From Candidatus Bathyarchaeota archaeon (lineage in GTDB: Archaea; Thermoproteota; Bathyarchaeia; 40CM-2-53-6; RBG-13-38-9): a DNA stretch of 64,000 nucleotides. Numbering within the stretch: position 1 is the first letter of the stretch; each line of letters starts with the position of its first letter. This document shows positions 10,420 through 21,341 of the stretch, in pieces. A program made the translations under genes and the position numbers. The stretch is from contig CAWECG010000004.1 of NCBI GenBank assembly GCA_963807605.1, positions 576,001-640,000 on the forward strand, in the 5' to 3' direction. The notes below the pieces were generated by a model. It was not told where the DNA came from. It did no database searches and saw only the letters and a program-made list of their open reading frames with translations.

Positions 10420-11743
<1,324 letters not shown>

Positions 11744-12965: not shown

Positions 12966-13018
12966 CCTAATCGACCTTGAAGCTTACATTTCGGTAAGGA
13001 GTGATTTAAGGATGTCCT

Positions 13019-13882
13019 CTATATCGGTACGCGTCTCCCCGAATGGTCGCGCTTCGTTACGCCAAGCTCCTTCATGCGCTTTAGCGTCTCGCCATCAAAG
13101 ACGGGCCCCTCCTTGCAGACTCTGTAAGAATCTATGATGCAACTTCCACACACCCCTATCCCGCACTTGATGATCCGCTCAAGACTGGCTTCGACTGGGA
13201 CTGAGTATTCAGAACCAAGATCAACGATCTTCTTGATCATCGCTTCCGGACCGCATGTATAGATGATATCATAATCATTCTTCTTTAGTTCAGCCTCAGC
13301 GACTTCAGAGGCGAGGCCCTTCACCCCGTATGCCCCATCCTCCGTCACAGGAATCACTTCGCCTCCGACCATCTGAGCGTTCAGTCGCATCCTATCCAAG
13401 AAGAGAAGCTCACCCGTGATCGGCGCTCCAATAATTGCAGTGAAGGTTTGGATATTCTTGGCAAGTAGATCTGAGAGGGGCCCAAGCGGCGCCCCTCCAG
13501 CACCACCCGCAATAATTAGGGGTTTCTTACTGCTCATTAGGGTGAAGCCTGTGCCGTAGGGGCCTCGTACCCCTATTGGTTGTCCTGTCTTCTTAGAGTG
13601 GAGGTTGTTGGTTGAGGGGCCGGCCATCTTAACAGTGATTGCGGCGAAGCCATCTTGCGTCATGGATGAGATGCTCATTGGTATCTCGTCTAGACCTGGT
13701 ATCCAGACCATTAGGAACTGTCCAGGTGTGGCTCTGGAGGAGGGTTCGTCTCTGAAGTAGACTGACTTTATCGTTGCTGTCTCGAATGTGGTTTTCTCGA
13801 TCCTCACGATTCTCGGTGTATGAATGGGCTTGGTCTGTGGTCTGGACTCTGAATGCAATTTGGCCACAGAAGACAACTGCAT
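13019..13882 (-). CDS. pyrK: Dihydroorotate dehydrogenase electron transfer subunit
   Basis: PGQFLMVWIPG, RGPYG, CGPE, CGIGVCGSC..C 2Fe-2S motif; start approximate. Confidence 0.9.
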   Translation of the reverse strand: MQLSSVAKLHSESRPQTKPIHTPRIVRIEKTTFETATIKSVYFRDEPSSRATPGQFLMVWIPGLDEIPMSISSMTQDGFAAITVKMAGPSTNNLHSKKTGQPIGVRGPYGTGFTLMSSKKPLIIAGGAGGAPLGPLSDLLAKNIQTFTAIIGAPITGELLFLDRMRLNAQMVGGEVIPVTEDGAYGVKGLASEVAEAELKKNDYDIIYTCGPEAMIKKIVDLGSEYSVPVEASLERIIKCGIGVCGSCIIDSYRVCKEGPVFDGETLKRMKELGVTKRDHSGRRVPI

Positions 13883-13910
13883 TTGCGTGGAGTCTAAAAG
13901 TCTTTCTTGA

Positions 13911-15350
13911 TCAGTCCTGGAAGAAGTGTCTGGTCTGGCCCATCGTCTGGACATCTAGAGGCTTGATATTAACAACGACAGGGAAGTCTCTGACTATATC
14001 GCCGACGATGAGGCAGTTGTGGGCGGGAAGATCTTTAACGATCGATTTTAGACTCTCAGCATCTATCTTCGCCACTTTTGAAACCGCATCCAAGTCATGT
14101 TCATTCGTGAAGTTGAACATGAAGATGTTGTCAGCCTGTCTGTAGACGCTCTCTTGGACAGTATCGGGCGAGTTGGTCACGAAGGTTGTGAATATGCCGA
14201 GATGTCTCATCCTTGTCACTATATCGTCCCAGTAGGTCTCTCGCAGGTAGAAGTGCGCCTCCTCTGCGAAGAGGAAGACTGCTTTCAACCTCATCTCTGA
14301 GAGTTCTTCCGTCACTTTGCTTATGAATAGTTCAACTATCAGTCTTCGGCTGATTGGATGTTCATCTTTCATGTTGATGACGTAGGCGTGGCCTTCATTC
14401 ATTTTCTTCTCAAAGGTGCTGAAGTCGAATGCTTGGGACTGATCGTTGGTGAAGAGTTCTAGATCCAGCAGGGTGTTGAATCTTGAGTAGATGGCTTCTC
14501 TGACGCTTTCGTGGCATGGGAATCTCCTGATGGAATCGTTGAGCGAATCGAGGTTTAGATTTCCATTTCTCTCAAGCTCATTCCACATTCTAGAGAAGAC
14601 CTTTGACGAGGTCCTGGGAAGGTCTAGGGCGTAGATCATGGTGTTAAGAAATGTCTTCAGACCAACCCCTGCTAAGCTGAACCTGAGGTTCTGGCCTGAT
14701 TTCAGAACGGAGATCTTATCTGCCACAGCATTAGGCTCGTCATTCTTTCCGCGGCCTATGTTTACATATTCACCGTTGATGTCGATTATCAGACATGGGG
14801 CTCCGTTCTGGACTAAACTTAATATGAGCAACTTAGAGAGATGTGACTTTCCTACTCCCTTCTTTCCGGTTATGATGTTCAGCCTCCCGTCGAGCATCTT
14901 CACATCTACTGTAAGGGAGTCTGACCTTGTTCTTCCAAGGGTGACGGGTCTTTTCCCATCCGTCGTCGAGGCCAACTTCTCGATCGGGTAAGGGACTATT
15001 CTCGAGGTTGTTCTTGATGGGAGCCATGATGCTTCTGTCTTGGCTTTTCCGCCTTCAATCGCGCCCCTGATCTTGCAAACGAGTAGTTTAGTGTCTTTCA
15101 AGACAGCGATCTGAGATGAGATGTTGAATGGATCATAATCACATCCTTGAACCGAATCCTCAGTCATAGCGTCCCTAAGTATATCTTCAAGGATGCCGGG
15201 CAGATTTGCGAATTGAATATCTATTACCTGGACCATGAGTCCCTTCTTCAGCTTCTTATCATCGATAAGCAGGTAGTCACCCTTCTCGATCATCTCTTCC
15301 GGTGAACATATGATCTGTACAGTATCGCCCTGTTTCTTGTAGATCTTCAG
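13911..15350 (-). CDS. HerA/FtsK-superfamily ATPase
   Basis: Walker A GKKGVGKS, IIDINGEY, Walker B FAEEAH; frame stays open to a CTG at 15350 immediately after the upstream gene's TGA. Confidence 0.85.
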   Translation of the reverse strand: MKIYKKQGDTVQIICSPEEMIEKGDYLLIDDKKLKKGLMVQVIDIQFANLPGILEDILRDAMTEDSVQGCDYDPFNISSQIAVLKDTKLLVCKIRGAIEGGKAKTEASWLPSRTTSRIVPYPIEKLASTTDGKRPVTLGRTRSDSLTVDVKMLDGRLNIITGKKGVGKSHLSKLLILSLVQNGAPCLIIDINGEYVNIGRGKNDEPNAVADKISVLKSGQNLRFSLAGVGLKTFLNTMIYALDLPRTSSKVFSRMWNELERNGNLNLDSLNDSIRRFPCHESVREAIYSRFNTLLDLELFTNDQSQAFDFSTFEKKMNEGHAYVINMKDEHPISRRLIVELFISKVTEELSEMRLKAVFLFAEEAHFYLRETYWDDIVTRMRHLGIFTTFVTNSPDTVQESVYRQADNIFMFNFTNEHDLDAVSKVAKIDAESLKSIVKDLPAHNCLIVGDIVRDFPVVVNIKPLDVQTMGQTRHFFQD

Positions 15351-16466
15351 TCAAGCCGCCTCCATCGATGTGCCGTAGGGACCGAAGAGGGATCTTCTGA
15401 GGCTAAACCTAGGCGCGAGTCGGAGCCCGTACTCTATCGACAGATGCCTCTGAATAGCCAAGATCTCATTCGCTGTGAAGGTTGAGAGAATATGTGCCAG
15501 CCTGAGTGTCTCCGGATAGCCTTGTTCGAGAACGTCTGTGTTAATCAGGCGCCCCATGGCTGTAAGCCCCAGTTCTTCAGGCACTTGGCGATCAATATCG
15601 ACTCTGAACGGAAGGCCCTGTGCGGCTAGTTTCGCTACGTAGACTCTTCCCATCAACCTGACAGGGGTCGAAGGAAATTGCGGAGCTATCAGTTTATCAA
15701 TATTCAATATGCACGGAGGTTTTGCCCTATCCAAGAGTCTAGTTATCCTCTTGCCGGAGAAGCAAAGTCTTGTCTCCTTTGAGAAGGCAACTGCCACGTT
15801 GCCATTCTCTCTTGAGCTGTTAAGAAGATCCTCGACACAAGCCGCTGGGTTGTCTGGCGTACCGGCGGTTAGAGAGCCATCCAAAAGGACTATTCCCTGT
15901 GAAAGGCTTGAGCAGGCGAATCTCTGCATCCATCTCTCCAGTGTATTTCTAAGCCTCGCGAGCAAGCGTTCAGTCACGGGCGACCATGCCGAGTATGAGA
16001 GACCTTGATGCGTGTGTGATCGCTTGTTGAGAAACCTAGCGATTGAGTCGTTGAGGTGGAAGGTGAGCGGTCCACATCTGGTAAAGTTGTAGCCTGATCC
16101 TTCCCTCCATACGAGAGCTCCTCTAATGGAATATATGAACCCCTCCTCAGATTCTCCAACCCTTACGCTTGAGACGTCGACTGCAGCAACAGGACAGCTC
16201 CCTTTGACGACTGGCAGCGGCCTTGGTTCATCGCTTATCGGCGTGTTTGTCAGGTCTACGTGAGGATCCTCCTCGACTTCCTCTTCTAAGCTAACCTCGA
16301 CTGTTGAGACTTCTCTAGGTTCAAAGAATCCGCCGTTGATCGTACGCATCGATTTGCTGCTCAGATCGAGGAGGAATTCTGGAAGCAGTGTCGTTTTTGA
16401 TTCTTCAAAGAGTAATCTACTTATCTTTGAATCTTCAAATTCTATGCCTTGGGTGCGGTGTGTCAG
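15351..16466 (-). CDS. NurA-like nuclease
   Basis: AAVDVSS, LLDGSL, FSKET, GYPETLRLAH motifs; frame open to CTG at 16466 after a G-rich RBS-like run. Confidence 0.8.
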   Translation of the reverse strand: MTHRTQGIEFEDSKISRLLFEESKTTLLPEFLLDLSSKSMRTINGGFFEPREVSTVEVSLEEEVEEDPHVDLTNTPISDEPRPLPVVKGSCPVAAVDVSSVRVGESEEGFIYSIRGALVWREGSGYNFTRCGPLTFHLNDSIARFLNKRSHTHQGLSYSAWSPVTERLLARLRNTLERWMQRFACSSLSQGIVLLDGSLTAGTPDNPAACVEDLLNSSRENGNVAVAFSKETRLCFSGKRITRLLDRAKPPCILNIDKLIAPQFPSTPVRLMGRVYVAKLAAQGLPFRVDIDRQVPEELGLTAMGRLINTDVLEQGYPETLRLAHILSTFTANEILAIQRHLSIEYGLRLAPRFSLRRSLFGPYGTSMEAA

Positions 16467-16536
16467 TTATTTCCCCCCTGTGGGAGTTTGCCCTCCAAAC
16501 TCCTGTGGCCGCCGCACCTACTCGCGCTCGTGGCAG

Positions 16537-17079
16537 TTAACTGCCAGGCTTGCGGCCTCCTTCGAGGTTTCTATCTCCGGCATCCCCCAGGGTCTTTAGA
16601 GTCTCTTGGACCTCTCTGGTTCCGGCTGCTGTGAGCCTGTAGCTGCCTTTTTCTACACGTTCTACTATCCCGGCTTTGCTCATCTCGGTCAGCGTATTCT
16701 GGATGGTTTTCTGAGCTTTCCCTATTGCCTTGGTTATCTCCTCCAACTGTACGTCATCTGATACCTTCTTTCCCAGTTTGAGGGCTACTTGGGCCGCAAG
16801 CAGGATCGTTGCTACAGCCTGGTCTGTGGAGAGGTCTGATCTCAACAGTATCGGCTGGCCGTCGCGTGTCAAGTTGACGAAAGCTGATATCTCCTCAAGG
16901 AGCGCGAGGTAGTCTGGACTGTAGATCAATTTTGAGGCAATGTCGTAGGCAGGATAGATCTCTGCTATGTATTGGCTTATTGCCCTGAGGACCTTTTCAG
17001 GTTCGCCTTCTATGGTATGTTTGAATCCTCCATGCTCTATTTGGACTTTCAATTTTGATTCTTGACTCATCTTTCTCAT
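16537..17079 (-). CDS. Winged-helix protein, paralog 4
   Basis: N-terminal KVQIEHGGFKHTIEGE, VNLTRDGQP, C-terminal EMSKAGIVERVEKGSYRLTAAG. Confidence 0.8.
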   Translation of the reverse strand: MRKMSQESKLKVQIEHGGFKHTIEGEPEKVLRAISQYIAEIYPAYDIASKLIYSPDYLALLEEISAFVNLTRDGQPILLRSDLSTDQAVATILLAAQVALKLGKKVSDDVQLEEITKAIGKAQKTIQNTLTEMSKAGIVERVEKGSYRLTAAGTREVQETLKTLGDAGDRNLEGGRKPGS

Positions 17080-17080
17080 C

Positions 17081-17578
17081 TCACGGAGTGAGTTTGGGTA
17101 GGATGTTTTGCATGAAGTTGTCAAGCCCATAGGTCGTTATCCGGTACTCGCCTTTGCCTATTCTCTCGACCAGTCCTTCTGTACACATCTCGCTTATTCT
17201 GCCGGCTACGGTTCCAGCTGTTTTCTTGGTGTAGGTTATCAGGTTACCAATCAGAGCCTTTTCGGAATCTAGATTCTTGGTGATGTAGCCGATGTGGACC
17301 TTGGCTAGGTGGAGGAGGATTAGTTCGCGGTCGGTTAGGTGTTCAGTTGGTACTATTACGACGACTCCTTCTGGTGTGAGTTTCATTATCTCGGAGCATG
17401 ATGAGAGGAGCTTCTCCTCATCCACTGTCAGCGTGAGTTTCGATATGAGCTCTAGTTTGGGAATGTTTTCTGACATGAAGCTGATCAATTCGCGGATCAC
17501 TTCGCTAGCGTCTCCTTTGATCTTCTTCTCTAGATTGTTGTATTTGATCCAGACCTCGACCGTTCTATCTTCGCTCAA
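17081..17578 (-). CDS. Winged-helix protein, paralog 3
   Basis: EVWIKYNNLEKKIKGD, MKLTPEGVV, RISEMCTEGLVERIGKGEYRITTYG. Confidence 0.8.
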   Translation of the reverse strand: MSEDRTVEVWIKYNNLEKKIKGDASEVIRELISFMSENIPKLELISKLTLTVDEEKLLSSCSEIMKLTPEGVVVIVPTEHLTDRELILLHLAKVHIGYITKNLDSEKALIGNLITYTKKTAGTVAGRISEMCTEGLVERIGKGEYRITTYGLDNFMQNILPKLTP

Positions 17579-18044
17579 CTGGGGTCCCTCCTGGCTTCAT
17601 CGACTTGACTGTGTTTTCTACCCACTGTTTTCCTGCGACTGTGAGTTTGTAGACGTCGCCTTCCCTGTAGGCTAGGCCTTCGCGTTTGAGTTCACTGAGT
17701 CTGCTTGCAAATCCGACTGAGAGGAATCCGCTGAGGCTCAGTAGGCGGCTGAGTTCTCTCGGTCTGACACCCTGTGGATCCATCGCGTATAGAAGAATGG
17801 CAACTGCCTCGCGGTCCGTCAGCTTTTCTCTTGTGACTGTCAGCACGGGTCCTTCAGTTGTCAGTTGGACTATCCTTGAGAGGATGTCTTTCTCACCTAC
17901 GGCTGTTGACTGGGTCGAGATCATGCTATCGATGACCTCGAGCCATTCGGGAAACTCTTTGATGCGGTCTATGATCTCGTCGAAGTTTTCTCCTTCGAGT
18001 TCTATGTTACCGTAGCTTCTGTGGAGTACGAGCTTGACCTTCAA
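17565..18044 (-). CDS. Winged-helix protein, paralog 2
   Basis: NIELEGE, VQLTTEGPV, RLSELKREGLAYREGDVYKLTVAG. Confidence 0.8.
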   Translation of the reverse strand: MKVKLVLHRSYGNIELEGENFDEIIDRIKEFPEWLEVIDSMISTQSTAVGEKDILSRIVQLTTEGPVLTVTREKLTDREAVAILLYAMDPQGVRPRELSRLLSLSGFLSVGFASRLSELKREGLAYREGDVYKLTVAGKQWVENTVKSMKPGGTPVERR

Positions 18045-18077
18045 AGCTTTTCTGAGACTGTTGTACTATGGAAAACG

Positions 18078-18127
18078 TATATAAGGTTTGCCGTAAAGTA
18101 TGAAGTATACGTAACGTTTACAGGCAA
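18078..18127 (-). promoter_or_regulatory. Internal BRE/TATA promoter with adjacent inverted repeat (candidate operator)
   Basis: Minus-strand CAAACCTTATATA ~35 nt before the paralog-2 start; imperfect IR TTGCCGTAAA (18088-18097) / TTTACAGGCAA (18117-18127). Confidence 0.5.
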
Positions 18128-18160
18128 CTCTGACATGGGGTTACATCCATTGTCCAAGAC

Positions 18161-18670
18161 TTATCGGAGCCTTCTCAGAACCTCATTCTCAACCCACTGC
18201 AACCCAGCGCCTGAGAGAGAATACTTACCGTTTTCAGCAACTAGCCGACCTTCCCTCCTAAGTTCACTCGCTCTGGCCCTCACTGCTTCAGGCTTCATCG
18301 TCTTCCAGCTTGAGCTGAGGATATTGCTCAGTTCATCACACTCAACGGCTGTTGGCTTAGCCGCATAGAGAATAAGTGCCAAGGCCTCCTTTGCCTTAAG
18401 AGAGTCCACTGGGATCGTCAGTCGGGGTCTGCCTTCCGGCGTGAGTTCAACAATACCTTCCAGAGAAGGCGTAACCGTGGTGCGGGTCGCCCCAAACTCG
18501 GAGAATGTCTTTTGAACAGGTTGTTGCTCAACACTTGTCTGGGGGAGGCTTTCCAGAAGCTTCTCGAAGTATTCTTTTACGTATGCAAAATCACCTTCGA
18601 GTTCAACTTCATAGTCCCCGCGTCTTATTCTGAATCTCAGGGTCTTTTCCTCGCTCAACCTTTCTCCCAT
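18161..18670 (-). CDS. Winged-helix protein, paralog 1
   Basis: RFRIRRGDYEVELEGD, VELTPEGRP, RASELRREGRLVAENGKYSLSGAG. Confidence 0.8.
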   Translation of the reverse strand: MGERLSEEKTLRFRIRRGDYEVELEGDFAYVKEYFEKLLESLPQTSVEQQPVQKTFSEFGATRTTVTPSLEGIVELTPEGRPRLTIPVDSLKAKEALALILYAAKPTAVECDELSNILSSSWKTMKPEAVRARASELRREGRLVAENGKYSLSGAGLQWVENEVLRRLR

Positions 18671-18703
18671 CCAATGTCGTCCTCAAGAGGCTGTCGGAAA
18701 ATT

Positions 18704-18870
18704 CTTCATATTGACATCTCCATATATGGGGATGGAGCGTTACCTCCGTGCGCTCTAGCCCGCCCATCATATCGGGTGGCTTCCACCCGCCAAGGCGTAT
18801 GCTTTACAGGCATAAGCCATGATAGCCGCTGCATTCTTTCCTTTGCGGCGTAGCGGGTGTGGGCTGTAAG
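18704..18870 (-). ncRNA. Putative omegaRNA-like scaffold overlapping the 3' end of the TnpB-like gene
   Basis: Clustered stems: CGGGTGG/CCACCCG (18773-18789), GGCGTATGC/GCATAAGCC, GCCGC/GCGGC, enclosing AGCCCGCCC (18757-65)/GGGTGTGGGCT (18855-65). Confidence 0.5.
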
Positions 18871-20271
18871 TCGCTCTATCAAAGGCTCCACATCTTTTGC
18901 ATCCTGCATATTCATCCTTCCATCGGTGGATATGCTAGGCTTCAGATATGGATGCCCGTGATCTTGAAGTAGAATTTTCTTAACCCAGGCTTGACGTTTA
19001 CGTATGCGTCCTGCAACTGTCTTCAGCTGGTCTGGGCTGAGATGTTCCTGTAGACCAAGTGCTCGTCTGCCAAGTATGAGTGCTGCAAGCTGATGTACAC
19101 TCATCCTTGGAAAGATTGGTTTGTATTTTGCTTCGGCGACTCGACTTGTATAGGCTGCTGGAATCCCTGCTAGGATCCACTCACGCCTCAGCGCTTTTGT
19201 GGCTGCAAGTGTGATAAGCTTCTTCCGCATGAAGTTGGCTATGAGTCTGTTCGCTCCGCCATGTTCAATACCTTTGAAATCGTTCAGGTCTTCAATGACC
19301 AGCACATTAACACCAAAGAAGCTTGCCCATTTGAGAGCCTTCTCTAGAAGGTTGCTTGCAAGCCACAGTCTCTTTTCCTTGCGGGCATAGATGAGTGCTG
19401 GTTCCTTGAAGGATTTGGCTGCAATGAGGTTTCCATCGCTGTTTACTATGACCAAGTCAATATGGGTAGGATTAACATCTATTGCAACCAATCTTGTCCC
19501 AGACCAAGGTTTGATCGGTTTGTCTGAGACCTCGAAGGATACGTAACAGTCATAATTTCCGTCAGGACGTTTCACCAGACGAATGGTGTATGGTCGAGTT
19601 GGATTCTTCGCCTTGACTGGGTGAACTGGTGGAAGGGTTTGGTCGGCGATGGCGTTGAAGATTCGCAGGTACGTTTCTGGCACGTGTAGTGGGACCATAA
19701 AGTTATCATGATTTGCTCCCCAACTTCGGATGTCAAGCATGAAGTCGCCATCAATTTTGCGGATGCGTGTGTGCAGGTTGCCCTTGTTCCATCCATCCCC
19801 AACGCTTACGAGTTGTCCTCGACGCTTCATGCGCCACCTCTCCGATCCTATGTGTTTTCGTCCGCCAAACACGACCTTCGGCAACGTACCATTCTTGAGA
19901 TGTGTTTGGATTGTGGCTTTTCGTTTCTCCAGCTTTGCGATCCGCATCTCATAGCCATGCTTCTTCAATGGGTTACAGGTTCGGTTCAGCTTCTTCTGGA
20001 CTTGGCCGATCTTCCAGTTTACTTCTTGAATGTGAAGGGCCAGCAGTTCTCGCTGACTCCCAATAATGGCTTTGGCTTGGAAGATGGCGTTATTCCGCCA
20101 GAGATAATTCTGAATACCGTAACGCTCCAAAAGGATGGGTGCGACTTCTGGCTGCTTGGTTCCAGGAATAAGTTGGTTGTAGGCTGAGCGGACCATACTC
20201 TGGAATATTCGACATGCATCGTCTAGGCTTAGATTCTGTTGTGCTTTGCAGTGAACTGTGTAGAATTGCAA
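18706..20271 (-). CDS. Divergent TnpB-related RuvC protein (no Zn finger, His at RuvC-III position)
   Basis: VVFGGRK, AIDVNP (RuvC-I), VIEDL (RuvC-II), AYTS..KY, SVHQLAALILGRR; GGTGA RBS before TTG. Confidence 0.8.
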   Translation of the reverse strand: MQFYTVHCKAQQNLSLDDACRIFQSMVRSAYNQLIPGTKQPEVAPILLERYGIQNYLWRNNAIFQAKAIIGSQRELLALHIQEVNWKIGQVQKKLNRTCNPLKKHGYEMRIAKLEKRKATIQTHLKNGTLPKVVFGGRKHIGSERWRMKRRGQLVSVGDGWNKGNLHTRIRKIDGDFMLDIRSWGANHDNFMVPLHVPETYLRIFNAIADQTLPPVHPVKAKNPTRPYTIRLVKRPDGNYDCYVSFEVSDKPIKPWSGTRLVAIDVNPTHIDLVIVNSDGNLIAAKSFKEPALIYARKEKRLWLASNLLEKALKWASFFGVNVLVIEDLNDFKGIEHGGANRLIANFMRKKLITLAATKALRREWILAGIPAAYTSRVAEAKYKPIFPRMSVHQLAALILGRRALGLQEHLSPDQLKTVAGRIRKRQAWVKKILLQDHGHPYLKPSISTDGRMNMQDAKDVEPLIERLTAHTRYAAKERMQRLSWLMPVKHTPWRVEATRYDGRARAHGGNAPSPYMEMSI

Positions 20272-20453
20272 ATCGCAGACTCACCCATAATTCTCCAGAT
20301 GGTGTTTTAAACAAATTTGTATCAATTTTCCGACAGCCTATTTAATCTTTAATGACCGATCAAACCTCGACAAGACCGGTTGATTCTGGCGCGCGAAATA
20401 TAGGCACGGTCAGTTAATGTTCTATCCGTTTTGAACCTTCACGTACTCTTTTT

Positions 20454-21341
20454 TTATTCGGTGCCGACTGACTCCTCAGCCAACAGGTAAAGTGAGCAGA
20501 AATCCAAGACTCCTTTGCCGGTTGAAGCAGCCTGCGACAGCATTTTGCGAACCAGATCAGTTACAGGCACGGAGACTTTCATTTCCTTGGCCTGTGCGAG
20601 TACAATATCGAAATCTTTCTCCATCATCTTTACGGTGAACGCCGGGGTGAAGTCACGGTTGATCAATGCCTTCGTCTTGTATCCAACAAAAGGAGAGGCG
20701 ATAGCACTGTTATTCATGACCTCCAGCATCTTGTCTGTTGCCAAGCCTGAGCGGTTGCCAAAGACCAGTGCCTCAGCCATGGCTTGGCATGTAACACCTA
20801 TCACCATGTTGAGCACCAGCTTCATGTATCTGGCCTCTTCTCCTGAACCCAGATAGAAGACCTTCTGACCCAAGACCTTTAAGATTGGCAGTGATCTTTC
20901 ATAGGTATCTCGTCTGCCTGAGACCATAATGCCGAGGGTGCCCGCGGCAGCCATCACTGTGCTTCCACTAACAGGAGCACGAAGCAAACTTACTCCTTTC
21001 TCTTCTGCCACTTTCGCCAGCTGGACTGAGGTCTGAGGAGAGACTGTACTCATATCAATCAAAGTACTACCGGGCTTCGCCCCTGCTAGCACTCCGCGGG
21101 GAGGCAGGGTAACAGCCTCTAGTGCCGCTGAGTCTGATACCATAGTGAAGATGATGCTTGCGTCATGCACCAAATCCTCTGGCGTCTCAGCAACTCTTAC
21201 TCCGCGAGCAGCAAGTTCAGCAACTTTTTCCCGAGTCCTGTTGTATACTGTAACGGCATAACCTGCATGGGTCAGGCGCTCCGACATGGGCCGGCCCATC
21301 TTTCCCATTCCTATCCACCCGATGCATGGCCTCTCAGACAT
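20454..21341 (-). CDS. NAD(P)-dependent beta-hydroxyacid dehydrogenase (3-hydroxyisobutyrate dehydrogenase family)
   Basis: WIGMGKMG, DMSTVSP, APVSGS, MKLVLN, KDF. Confidence 0.9.
   Translation of the reverse strand: MSERPCIGWIGMGKMGRPMSERLTHAGYAVTVYNRTREKVAELAARGVRVAETPEDLVHDASIIFTMVSDSAALEAVTLPPRGVLAGAKPGSTLIDMSTVSPQTSVQLAKVAEEKGVSLLRAPVSGSTVMAAAGTLGIMVSGRRDTYERSLPILKVLGQKVFYLGSGEEARYMKLVLNMVIGVTCQAMAEALVFGNRSGLATDKMLEVMNNSAIASPFVGYKTKALINRDFTPAFTVKMMEKDFDIVLAQAKEMKVSVPVTDLVRKMLSQAASTGKGVLDFCSLYLLAEESVGTE

Follow-up and report, generated by a model that had tools for sequence, protein, structure and literature searches.

A divergent NurA-HerA gene pair and its winged-helix paralogs in Bathyarchaeia: a possible control module at an archaeal DNA-end-processing locus

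The locus described here lies in a stretch of 64,000 nucleotides (nt) from Candidatus Bathyarchaeota archaeon (Bathyarchaeia; 40CM-2-53-6; RBG-13-38-9; assembly GCA_963807605.1, contig CAWECG010000004.1, positions 576,001-640,000, forward strand), hereafter the window. Six genes at positions 13911-18670, all on the minus strand, encode four related winged helix-turn-helix (wHTH) proteins, here called P1 to P4, followed by a NurA-like nuclease and a HerA-like ATPase. NurA-HerA is the archaeal DNA-end-resection engine, although to our knowledge its recruitment and control are poorly understood. The genes, with the neighbour that follows them, are as follows.

18161-18670, minus strand: P1, outermost wHTH paralog, an open reading frame (ORF) of 169 amino acids (aa)
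17565-18044, minus strand: P2, wHTH paralog, an ORF of 159 aa with a TTG start
17081-17578, minus strand: P3, wHTH paralog, an ORF of 165 aa
16537-17079, minus strand: P4, wHTH paralog adjoining nurA, 180 aa from the Met that matches ortholog starts
15351-16466 (probable), minus strand: nurA-like nuclease gene, 371 aa; the ATG-started ORF is 15351-16349, 332 aa
13911-15293, minus strand: herA-like gene for an FtsK/HerA-class ATPase, 460 aa, with a DUF87 domain
13019-13954, minus strand: pyrK (NF000796, 258.9 bits against a cut-off of 224), the neighbour that a previous reading of the window, made from its letters alone (the sequence-only reading), had recognised

The source genome is 94% complete. 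It was compared with 151 genomes of the class, 94 of them of high quality, and with a phylum sample of 301 genomes, and neighbourhoods were counted in 80 HerA loci of the class and in 12 that belong to other classes of the phylum. Trees were built from 155 paralog sequences, leaving out five matches below 40 bits, and from 59 HerA sequences, for which every third class locus was taken.

The association between the wHTH genes and nurA-herA is widely kept. The nurA gene directly precedes herA in 79 of the 80 class loci, the lone miss being a contig end, and in 12/12 loci of other classes; the paralogs lie upstream in 60 of the 80, always on the herA strand, and in 10/12 loci of other classes, so that the linkage on which the sequence-only reading depended holds in related genomes. 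Upstream paralogs number four in 9 of the class loci, three in 23, two in 23, one in 5 and none in 20, counts that are underestimates in families possessing an extra, divergent wHTH protein, since the paralog profile (E up to 1e-5) misses it. This extra protein carries a wing of the form ...VRRWKT-x-GYVY... and occurs in or beside the row, either in the spacer between paralogs and nurA (L047, L056, L069, L070, L077, L078, L086) or upstream of the first paralog (L043, L045, L048, L051, L066, L116, L117).

In the paralog tree the sequences fall into four orthogroups whose order along the DNA is fixed. The P4 type (51 sequences) is always nearest nurA, followed by the P3 type (47 sequences, mostly second from nurA), the P2 type (42 sequences, third from nurA, or second where there are two paralogs) and the P1 type (15 sequences, always outermost), the last being confined to part of the lineage. 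Two tightly packed blocks can be distinguished. Between paralogs the median gap is 3.5 nt, 71 of the 96 junctions being no wider than 10 nt, and between nurA and herA it is -1 nt, with 71 of 79 at 10 nt or less; the spacer that separates the two blocks has a median of 199 nt.

Paralog profile matches were found in 128 of the 151 class genomes (86 of the 94 high-quality ones); genomes of the window's family have three to five copies, usually four, and those of the remaining class have one to five. HerA of the window's type is single-copy and present in 88/151, and its identity to the window protein falls stepwise with taxonomic distance, from 88% within the genus through 77-84% in the family, about 50-65% in the order and 44-52% in the class to 34-47% in other classes. 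Judged from these comparisons, the cluster is old and vertically inherited, which agrees with the old, stable system that had been proposed. Across the phylum sample the paralog profile matched 122 genomes and HerA 107, and the two were present or absent together at family level: families with both gave 12/12 for paralog and 12/12 for HerA in two cases and 17/18 with 18/18 in a third, whereas families lacking both gave 1/45 and 0/45, 0/14 and 0/14, 0/23 and 0/23, and 0/20 and 0/20, figures that are descriptive, related genomes not being independent.

In class families without window-type HerA, the paralogs stand within about 3 kb of another NurA-HerA pair, sometimes divergently oriented. This second pair combines a Pfam NurA domain (1e-12 to 1e-19) with DUF87; its HerA occurs in 37/151 class genomes, in families complementary to those of the window type, and the two types together cover 125/151. 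One wHTH-linked HerA (L122:3009-5519, minus strand) carries an intein inside DUF87 (Intein_splicing, 5.9e-20). In a few families the paralogs adjoin gatD/gatE or a tRNA-intron endonuclease gene and nurA-herA lies elsewhere, and in some the paralog and nurA-herA blocks are divergent or unlinked, both still being found in the genome. The pyrK gene is present in 22 of the 80 loci, within about 2 kb of herA in 20 of these 22 and directly downstream in most. Because the neighbourhood is kept across classes and across two HerA types, the paralogs are, as far as genomic context can tell, very probably linked in function to NurA-HerA.

Pairwise BLASTP relates each of the four wHTH proteins to all the others (P1-P2 4e-18, P3-P4 5e-17, P2-P3 1e-9, P1-P3 1e-7, P1-P4 1e-7, P2-P4 2e-6), and on this sequence evidence P1 to P4 are true, ancient paralogs, as the description of four consecutive paralogous ORFs had implied. 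The motifs then noted as shared are present, namely the EG at the end of the N-terminal hairpin (G25), a central T-P-E-G (G74) and the wing residues Y147 and G153, each at least 90% conserved in 150 family members. It was also correctly seen that the genes for P2 to P4 overlap or abut: the frames of P2 and P3 share 14 nt, and that of P4 adjoins P3 or, if it begins at an alternative upstream ATG at 17130 (16537-17130, 197 aa), overlaps it.

The expectation that the paralogs would match no characterised family was confirmed, as searches of P1-P4 against Pfam, NCBIfam and PADLOC gave no family at threshold, MarR, PadR, ArsR and TrmB included. A scan of the 150 members likewise gave winged-helix models below threshold and nothing else. 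The best curated family, HVO_A0261_N, scored 26 against a required 35 bits and appeared below threshold in 59 of the 150 members, and the PADLOC matches were confined to models of the wHTH type, Csa3 and AbiEi among them, and were weak, at 7e-7 or worse. Comparison with proteins of the kite/ScpB-MksE type gave 16.7 bits for MksE (cut-off 27) and an E of 0.013 for JetB, and none of ESCRT-II/Vps25, ScpB/kite and GINS stood in the fold-search lists or gave a family match above cut-off.

An AlphaFold2 model of P4, made on an alignment of 150 sequences and having a mean predicted local distance difference test score (pLDDT) of 84.9, predicts a beta-hairpin spanning residues 10-25, followed by three helices within 27-64, a second, small hairpin with the T-P-E-G motif at 68-78, a canonical winged helix at 85-149 and a long C-terminal helix at 151-175. 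Residues 79-178 of the model resemble DNA binders of the MarR/PadR/ArsR/AspA/Sso10a type, with Z of 9-11 and a root-mean-square deviation of 1.8-3.7 A, while Foldseek returned no match for the whole model at E up to 1e-3. Modelled alone, the N-terminal 82 residues reached a pLDDT of 81 and a predicted template modelling score of 0.45; in VIA-align the best Z for this module was 3.8, none reaching Z 5, and the value against the Lsr2 dimerisation domain, Z 3.0, was within noise.

Judging from its detectable members, the paralog family is small and archaeal. Among 1.84 billion proteins, 1005 representatives match with an E of 1e-3 or below, and 307 of them still do at 1e-10; the named matches are hypothetical proteins of Bathyarchaeia/Bathyarchaeota, the exceptions being two labels of a generic regulator and one entry labelled [Eubacterium] cellulosolvens, and the ESM Atlas neighbours are unnamed clusters from Bathyarchaeota and Nitrososphaerota. 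No fusion of a paralog to NurA or HerA was seen among the longer proteins, where the single match was to an unrelated PALP domain, or in the 150 best representatives. Other fusions occur rarely (P0122, P0252, P0172, P0192): a Ser/Thr protein kinase followed by two truncated copies, a DUF488 at the C-terminus and, in two proteins, an uncharacterised N-domain of 200 aa with a PD-(D/E)XK-like D...ExK pattern recognised by eye and no Pfam match; all of them may be artefacts of gene calling.

The nurA gene of the window probably extends over 15351-16466 (371 aa), because conservation of its frame reaches back 39 codons before the ATG, with about 70% identity to relatives whose own start, a TTG, has the corresponding position, and because a CTG stands where close relatives have that TTG. 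This candidate start (16464-16466) follows a TAA stop and a GGGGGG run resembling a ribosome-binding site. The product matches Pfam NurA (PF09376) marginally, with 23.8 bits against a cut-off of 21 over protein residues 54-286 and model positions 3-249 of 254. Across 85 orthologs its residues D97, D196, K230, R288, D290, Y317 and H325 never vary, and E177 is kept in at least 90%; the conserved acidic and His residues may correspond to the catalytic positions of solved NurA. A profile of this NurA found no solved structure at E up to 0.01. The herA product contains DUF87 (PF01935, 6e-14, 53.1 bits against a cut-off of 23.2), with a Walker A motif GxKGxGKSH (G143-H151) and a Walker B motif FLFAEEAH (F340-H347) that are at least 95% conserved in 82 orthologs. 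The Walker motifs of HerA bear out the earlier description of intact motifs, and the conserved acidic residues of NurA agree with it. The two genes had also been described as abutting, which is true of relatives; in the window they are 57 nt apart. Since both proteins are distant from characterised ones, HerA scoring 22.7 bits against the 800 required by the canonical equivalog NF040937 and 13.4 against the 970 of NF040819, their activities are predicted from conserved motifs.

The sequence-only reading had regarded this pair as a second HerA-NurA machine lacking Mre11/Rad50. The first part was not borne out. Two canonical HerA queries found in the source genome only the window HerA (2e-13) and a 619-aa HerA-like protein, and the NurA profile matched only the window gene, with no second NurA-HerA pair found; a six-frame search with PF09376 (E up to 0.01) gave nothing and missed the window gene as well, being insensitive for counting NurA. 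The window's pair is therefore the only herA/nurA pair seen in its own genome, an outcome that the reading had listed as contrary to its proposal. The absence of Mre11/Rad50 is correct for the window and wrong as a general trait: it reflects a local rearrangement, as Mre11-Rad50-like pairs are encoded elsewhere in the same genome (C3:364973-368651 and C1:514543-517969), and in 10 of the 80 class loci mre11-rad50 lies downstream of window-type herA on the same strand, with a gap to mre11 of 3-21 nt in five of them. That mre11-rad50 directly follows this HerA type in those loci points to a DNA-end-resection module rather than a defence island.

A separate canonical herA-mre11-rad50 locus, for which a check had been proposed, was not found in the source genome, whereas three genomes of other classes contain such an operon together with the module described here; its best NCBIfam matches are helicase_HerA 1e-68, Mre11_Sulfo 1e-61 and Rad50 7e-87, all below the equivalog cut-offs. 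The HerA tree shows three clades: the window type, the canonical type linked to mre11-rad50, and the second wHTH-linked type. In one bathyarchaeial locus (L058:3436-10177) a canonical-clade herA followed by mre11 lies on the same strand 2.5 kb downstream of window-type nurA-herA.

Other HerA-class genes of the source genome stand apart from this cluster. The 619-aa HerA-like ATPase (C3:714205-717913, L008:2206-5914) matches the PADLOC model 'HerA, Type III coevolved' at 1.4e-38, and its gene overlaps that of a 622-aa protein for which Pfam, NCBIfam and PADLOC gave no family; the two may form a separate HerA-effector pair. At C3:413270-417682 (L009:10271-14683) a JAB-ThiF fusion, a TrmB-like wHTH protein and a 747-aa TraG/HerA-like ATPase are encoded in a row, with a TrwB-like ATPase 10 kb upstream, an arrangement that looks like an integrated conjugative or ubiquitin-like module.

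Cis elements accompany the gene row. What is new here is a candidate near-palindrome at the P2 promoter together with an RNA helix at the nurA start.

18106-18118, between P1 and P2: operator-like motif AACGTTACGTATA, a near-palindrome TACGTNACGTA, upstream of the P2 promoter
18078-18084, minus strand: TTATATA, which resembles a TATA box and precedes the P2 start by 34 nt, a putative promoter element
16449-16521, minus strand: structured RNA at the start of nurA, made up of an outer helix and a hairpin

The motif AACGTTACGTATA lies 21 nt upstream of TTATATA and 61 nt upstream of the P2 start. With up to two mismatches it recurs 32-65 nt upstream of a paralog start in 13 loci, the window included, against a total of 44 matches in 2.5 Mb, and in some of the 13 it is a perfect palindrome, TACGTTACGTA. 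At the other end of the paralog block, the outer helix of the RNA element pairs GGUGCGGCGG, in the spacer between P4 and nurA, with codons 3-6 of nurA (CACCGCACC), enclosing a variable hairpin, the G-rich ribosome-binding site and the nurA start codon. This helix is 98.3% paired over 21 loci, slid controls giving 40-62%, and shows compensatory changes from U-A to C-G in one clade and from G-C to A-U in another, both of which alter an amino acid of NurA. RNAalifold recovers both helices, the inner one also with compensatory changes, and folding of the window RNA reproduces the structure with a minimum free energy of -35.7 kcal/mol (z -2.05). A covariance model gave 29 matches in 100 sources (1.63 Mb), eight of them outside the training set; those located at a nurA start are the 21 training sequences and L121, the one new match checked for place. 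Searching 13000-20500 against Rfam at E up to 1 produced no match.

A different element marks nurA elsewhere. In 25 of the 64 loci without the RNA element, which belong to other families of Bathyarchaeia, a very strongly conserved promoter region has an inverted repeat, TTGYRCA...TGCRCAA, that abuts the TATA box of nurA (TTAAATA). In the loci of this kind numbered L035 to L067 the repeat lies about 60-100 nt upstream of nurA, TATTGGTGAAT follows about 25-30 nt downstream of TTAAATA, and there is a small divergent gene whose product starts with a similar beta-hairpin/helix module.

The arrangement can be read in several ways, of which the one that we favour, though tentatively and at somewhat less than an even chance, takes the paralogs as a dedicated heteromeric control module of NurA-HerA. 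It is favoured because the paralogs have a fold of the regulator type, palindromes occur at two promoters, the layout is in two blocks with a spacer, and divergent or unlinked arrangements are tolerated. On this proposal the window would hold the form that the archaeal genes for DNA-end resection take in this lineage, with NurA as a divergent nuclease and HerA as a hexameric motor ATPase. Contacts made by the N-terminal module and the C-terminal helix would join the paralogs, each about 165 aa long, into a DNA-binding dimer or heteromer, which may bind the near-palindrome before its own promoter and, in other families, the palindrome over the nurA TATA box, and such binding would set the expression of nurA-herA. 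A second layer could act on the mRNA, where the helix would hide the ribosome-binding site and start codon of nurA so that NurA is made only once the helix has been opened, for example by ribosomes finishing P4. NurA-HerA itself would serve recombination by unwinding DNA ends and digesting them, in concert with Mre11-Rad50, whose genes lie elsewhere in the genome. Several observations weigh against this proposal. Sets of two to four fixed-order, translationally coupled paralogs with an extra N-terminal domain are unusual for plain transcription factors, and such a layout would be at least as natural for the stoichiometric components of a complex. The window copy of the operator candidate is a near-palindrome only; a regulon search for exact AACGTTACGTATA found none elsewhere in the source genome, and with the P2 promoter as its one site the motif defines no visible regulon. 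As for nurA, the palindrome at its promoter belongs to other families and is absent from the window, the outer RNA helix rests on two independent compensatory events with a coding 3' arm, and the distance of this HerA and NurA from characterised proteins leaves their activity a prediction.

The main rival is that the paralogs are stoichiometric subunits forming a hetero-oligomeric DNA-binding adaptor docked on NurA and/or HerA, which would recognise DNA ends or load the machine there and so replace or complement Mre11-Rad50. We consider this possible but doubtful. The fixed paralog order in the 155 sequences, with the P4 type always adjoining nurA, gaps of at most 10 nt in 71/96 paralog junctions, as is typical of co-assembled complexes, and the family-level co-occurrence and co-absence of paralogs and NurA-HerA over the 301 phylum genomes all speak for it, as does a conserved N-terminal module without known fold (best Z 3.8), in keeping with a private contact surface; through the RNA element, NurA synthesis may also be coupled to P4 translation. 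However, 20 of the 80 loci have no paralog within about 9 kb of nurA-herA and the blocks are divergent or far apart in some families, the 199-nt median spacer between them contains promoter-like elements, and neither the longer proteins nor the best 150 representatives include a fusion to NurA or HerA. A further reading, in which the paralogs form a hetero-oligomeric sensor of DNA ends or damage docked on a non-canonical NurA-HerA, with an RNA switch at the nurA start, seems to us unlikely; were it true, the locus would encode a self-contained, damage-gated resection machine, an undescribed recombination accessory complex of Bathyarchaeia and several other Thermoproteota classes. We regard as very improbable a general role of the paralogs in chromatin or segregation, in which case their place beside nurA-herA would be historical and without functional link. 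Their wHTH and C-terminal helix do resemble Sso10a-type chromatin proteins (Z 9.1-9.4) and in some families they stand beside gatD/gatE instead of nurA-herA, but the linkage persists across classes, with two HerA types and in parallel as well as divergent orientation, the family is small (the 307 representatives at E up to 1e-10), and it is nearly absent where these HerA types are absent (1/45, 0/14, 0/23 and 0/20). Hardly more credible, and if anything less so, is an anti-virus or anti-plasmid defence system in which DNA-binding sensors would serve a HerA-nuclease pair. Its appeal comes from the window HerA, whose best PADLOC match is mad8 (9.8e-19), several other defence HerA models matching in part, and whose only solved sequence relatives are chains labelled just nucleoside triphosphate hydrolase or ATP-binding protein (8j4u, 1.2e-7), which we take to belong to defence HerA assemblies, as well as from the transposase-like genes that flank the window copy. 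The pair is nevertheless single-copy, found in most class genomes with an identity that tracks taxonomy, and keeps housekeeping neighbours, pyrK in 22/80 loci and gatD/gatE or a tRNA-intron endonuclease gene elsewhere; the flanking transposase genes occur in none of the 80 related loci, mre11-rad50 stands in the same row in 10 of them, NurA had no match in PADLOC, and no complete system of PADLOC-DB 2.0 was found. Conservation, the linkage to mre11-rad50 and pyrK and the 0/80 for transposases thus make a mobile defence island unlikely and tie the pair to DNA-break processing.

Neither of the flanking genes just mentioned is present in any of the 80 related loci. A TnpB/IS605 OrfB-like gene at 10437-11633 (minus strand; OrfB_IS605 2.4e-16, Cas12f1-like TNB 2.9e-12) has at least nine near-identical copies in the genome, one of which also lies in this window region of contig C4. 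A single-copy ORF of 521 aa (18706-20271, minus strand), without Pfam family and with a weak match to the N-terminal domain of IS605-type transposases (TIGR01765, E 0.032), ends 35 nt before P1; given that this ORF is missing from all related loci, it may have displaced P1's own promoter.

A divergent NurA-HerA, paired with a private, undescribed winged-helix family and with conserved DNA and RNA elements of putative control, is a class-wide feature of Bathyarchaeia that extends to other classes of the phylum, and the seemingly missing canonical HerA of these genomes is replaced by this variant. The organisms lack a genetic system, but expression and assay of their proteins are feasible. The locus offers concrete handles on how break processing is controlled or targeted: an operator candidate, an RNA helix over the nurA start and two to four candidate partner proteins. 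Full-text literature searches, covering articles without their supplements, returned no description of wHTH paralogs with NurA-HerA, and a search of the MADS literature returned nothing relevant to HerA. A role of HerA-NurA in recombination is named in PMC5797428.

At the RNA level, leader structures that sequester a ribosome-binding site form a general class active in translational coupling or as RNA thermometers; the helix predicted here would likewise bury a Shine-Dalgarno-like G-run and the nurA start codon, but its 3' arm consists of nurA codons 3-6 and it matches no Rfam family. The modelled C-terminal half of the paralogs resembles binders of the MarR/PadR/ArsR/Sso10a type, including the helix after the wing that is the dimerisation helix of those families, from which the paralogs differ by their extra conserved N-terminal module of about 80 aa and by their occurrence in sets of two to four fixed-order copies. 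With the defence HerA-effector pairs (Sir2-HerA, DUF4297-HerA; HerA/mad8 in PADLOC) the locus shares a HerA-class ATPase combined with a nuclease, and the window HerA shows the likeness to mad8 (66 bits) and, over its C-terminal third, to 8j4u; unlike those pairs, it is housekeeping-like, lacks their effectors and is linked to mre11-rad50 and pyrK. The canonical HerA-NurA carries out end resection with Mre11-Rad50 and is encoded in herA-mre11-rad50-nurA operons of Sulfolobus, Pyrococcus and Thermococcus. As there, a NurA-domain nuclease adjoins an FtsK/HerA-class ATPase with intact Walker motifs, and mre11-rad50 stands in the same row in 10/80 related loci, the window module itself being single-copy and vertically inherited. 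In contrast, the window HerA and NurA score far below the equivalog level and the HerA belongs to a separate clade, while the gene order is nurA followed by herA, preceded by one to four wHTH paralogs that are foreign to the described system.

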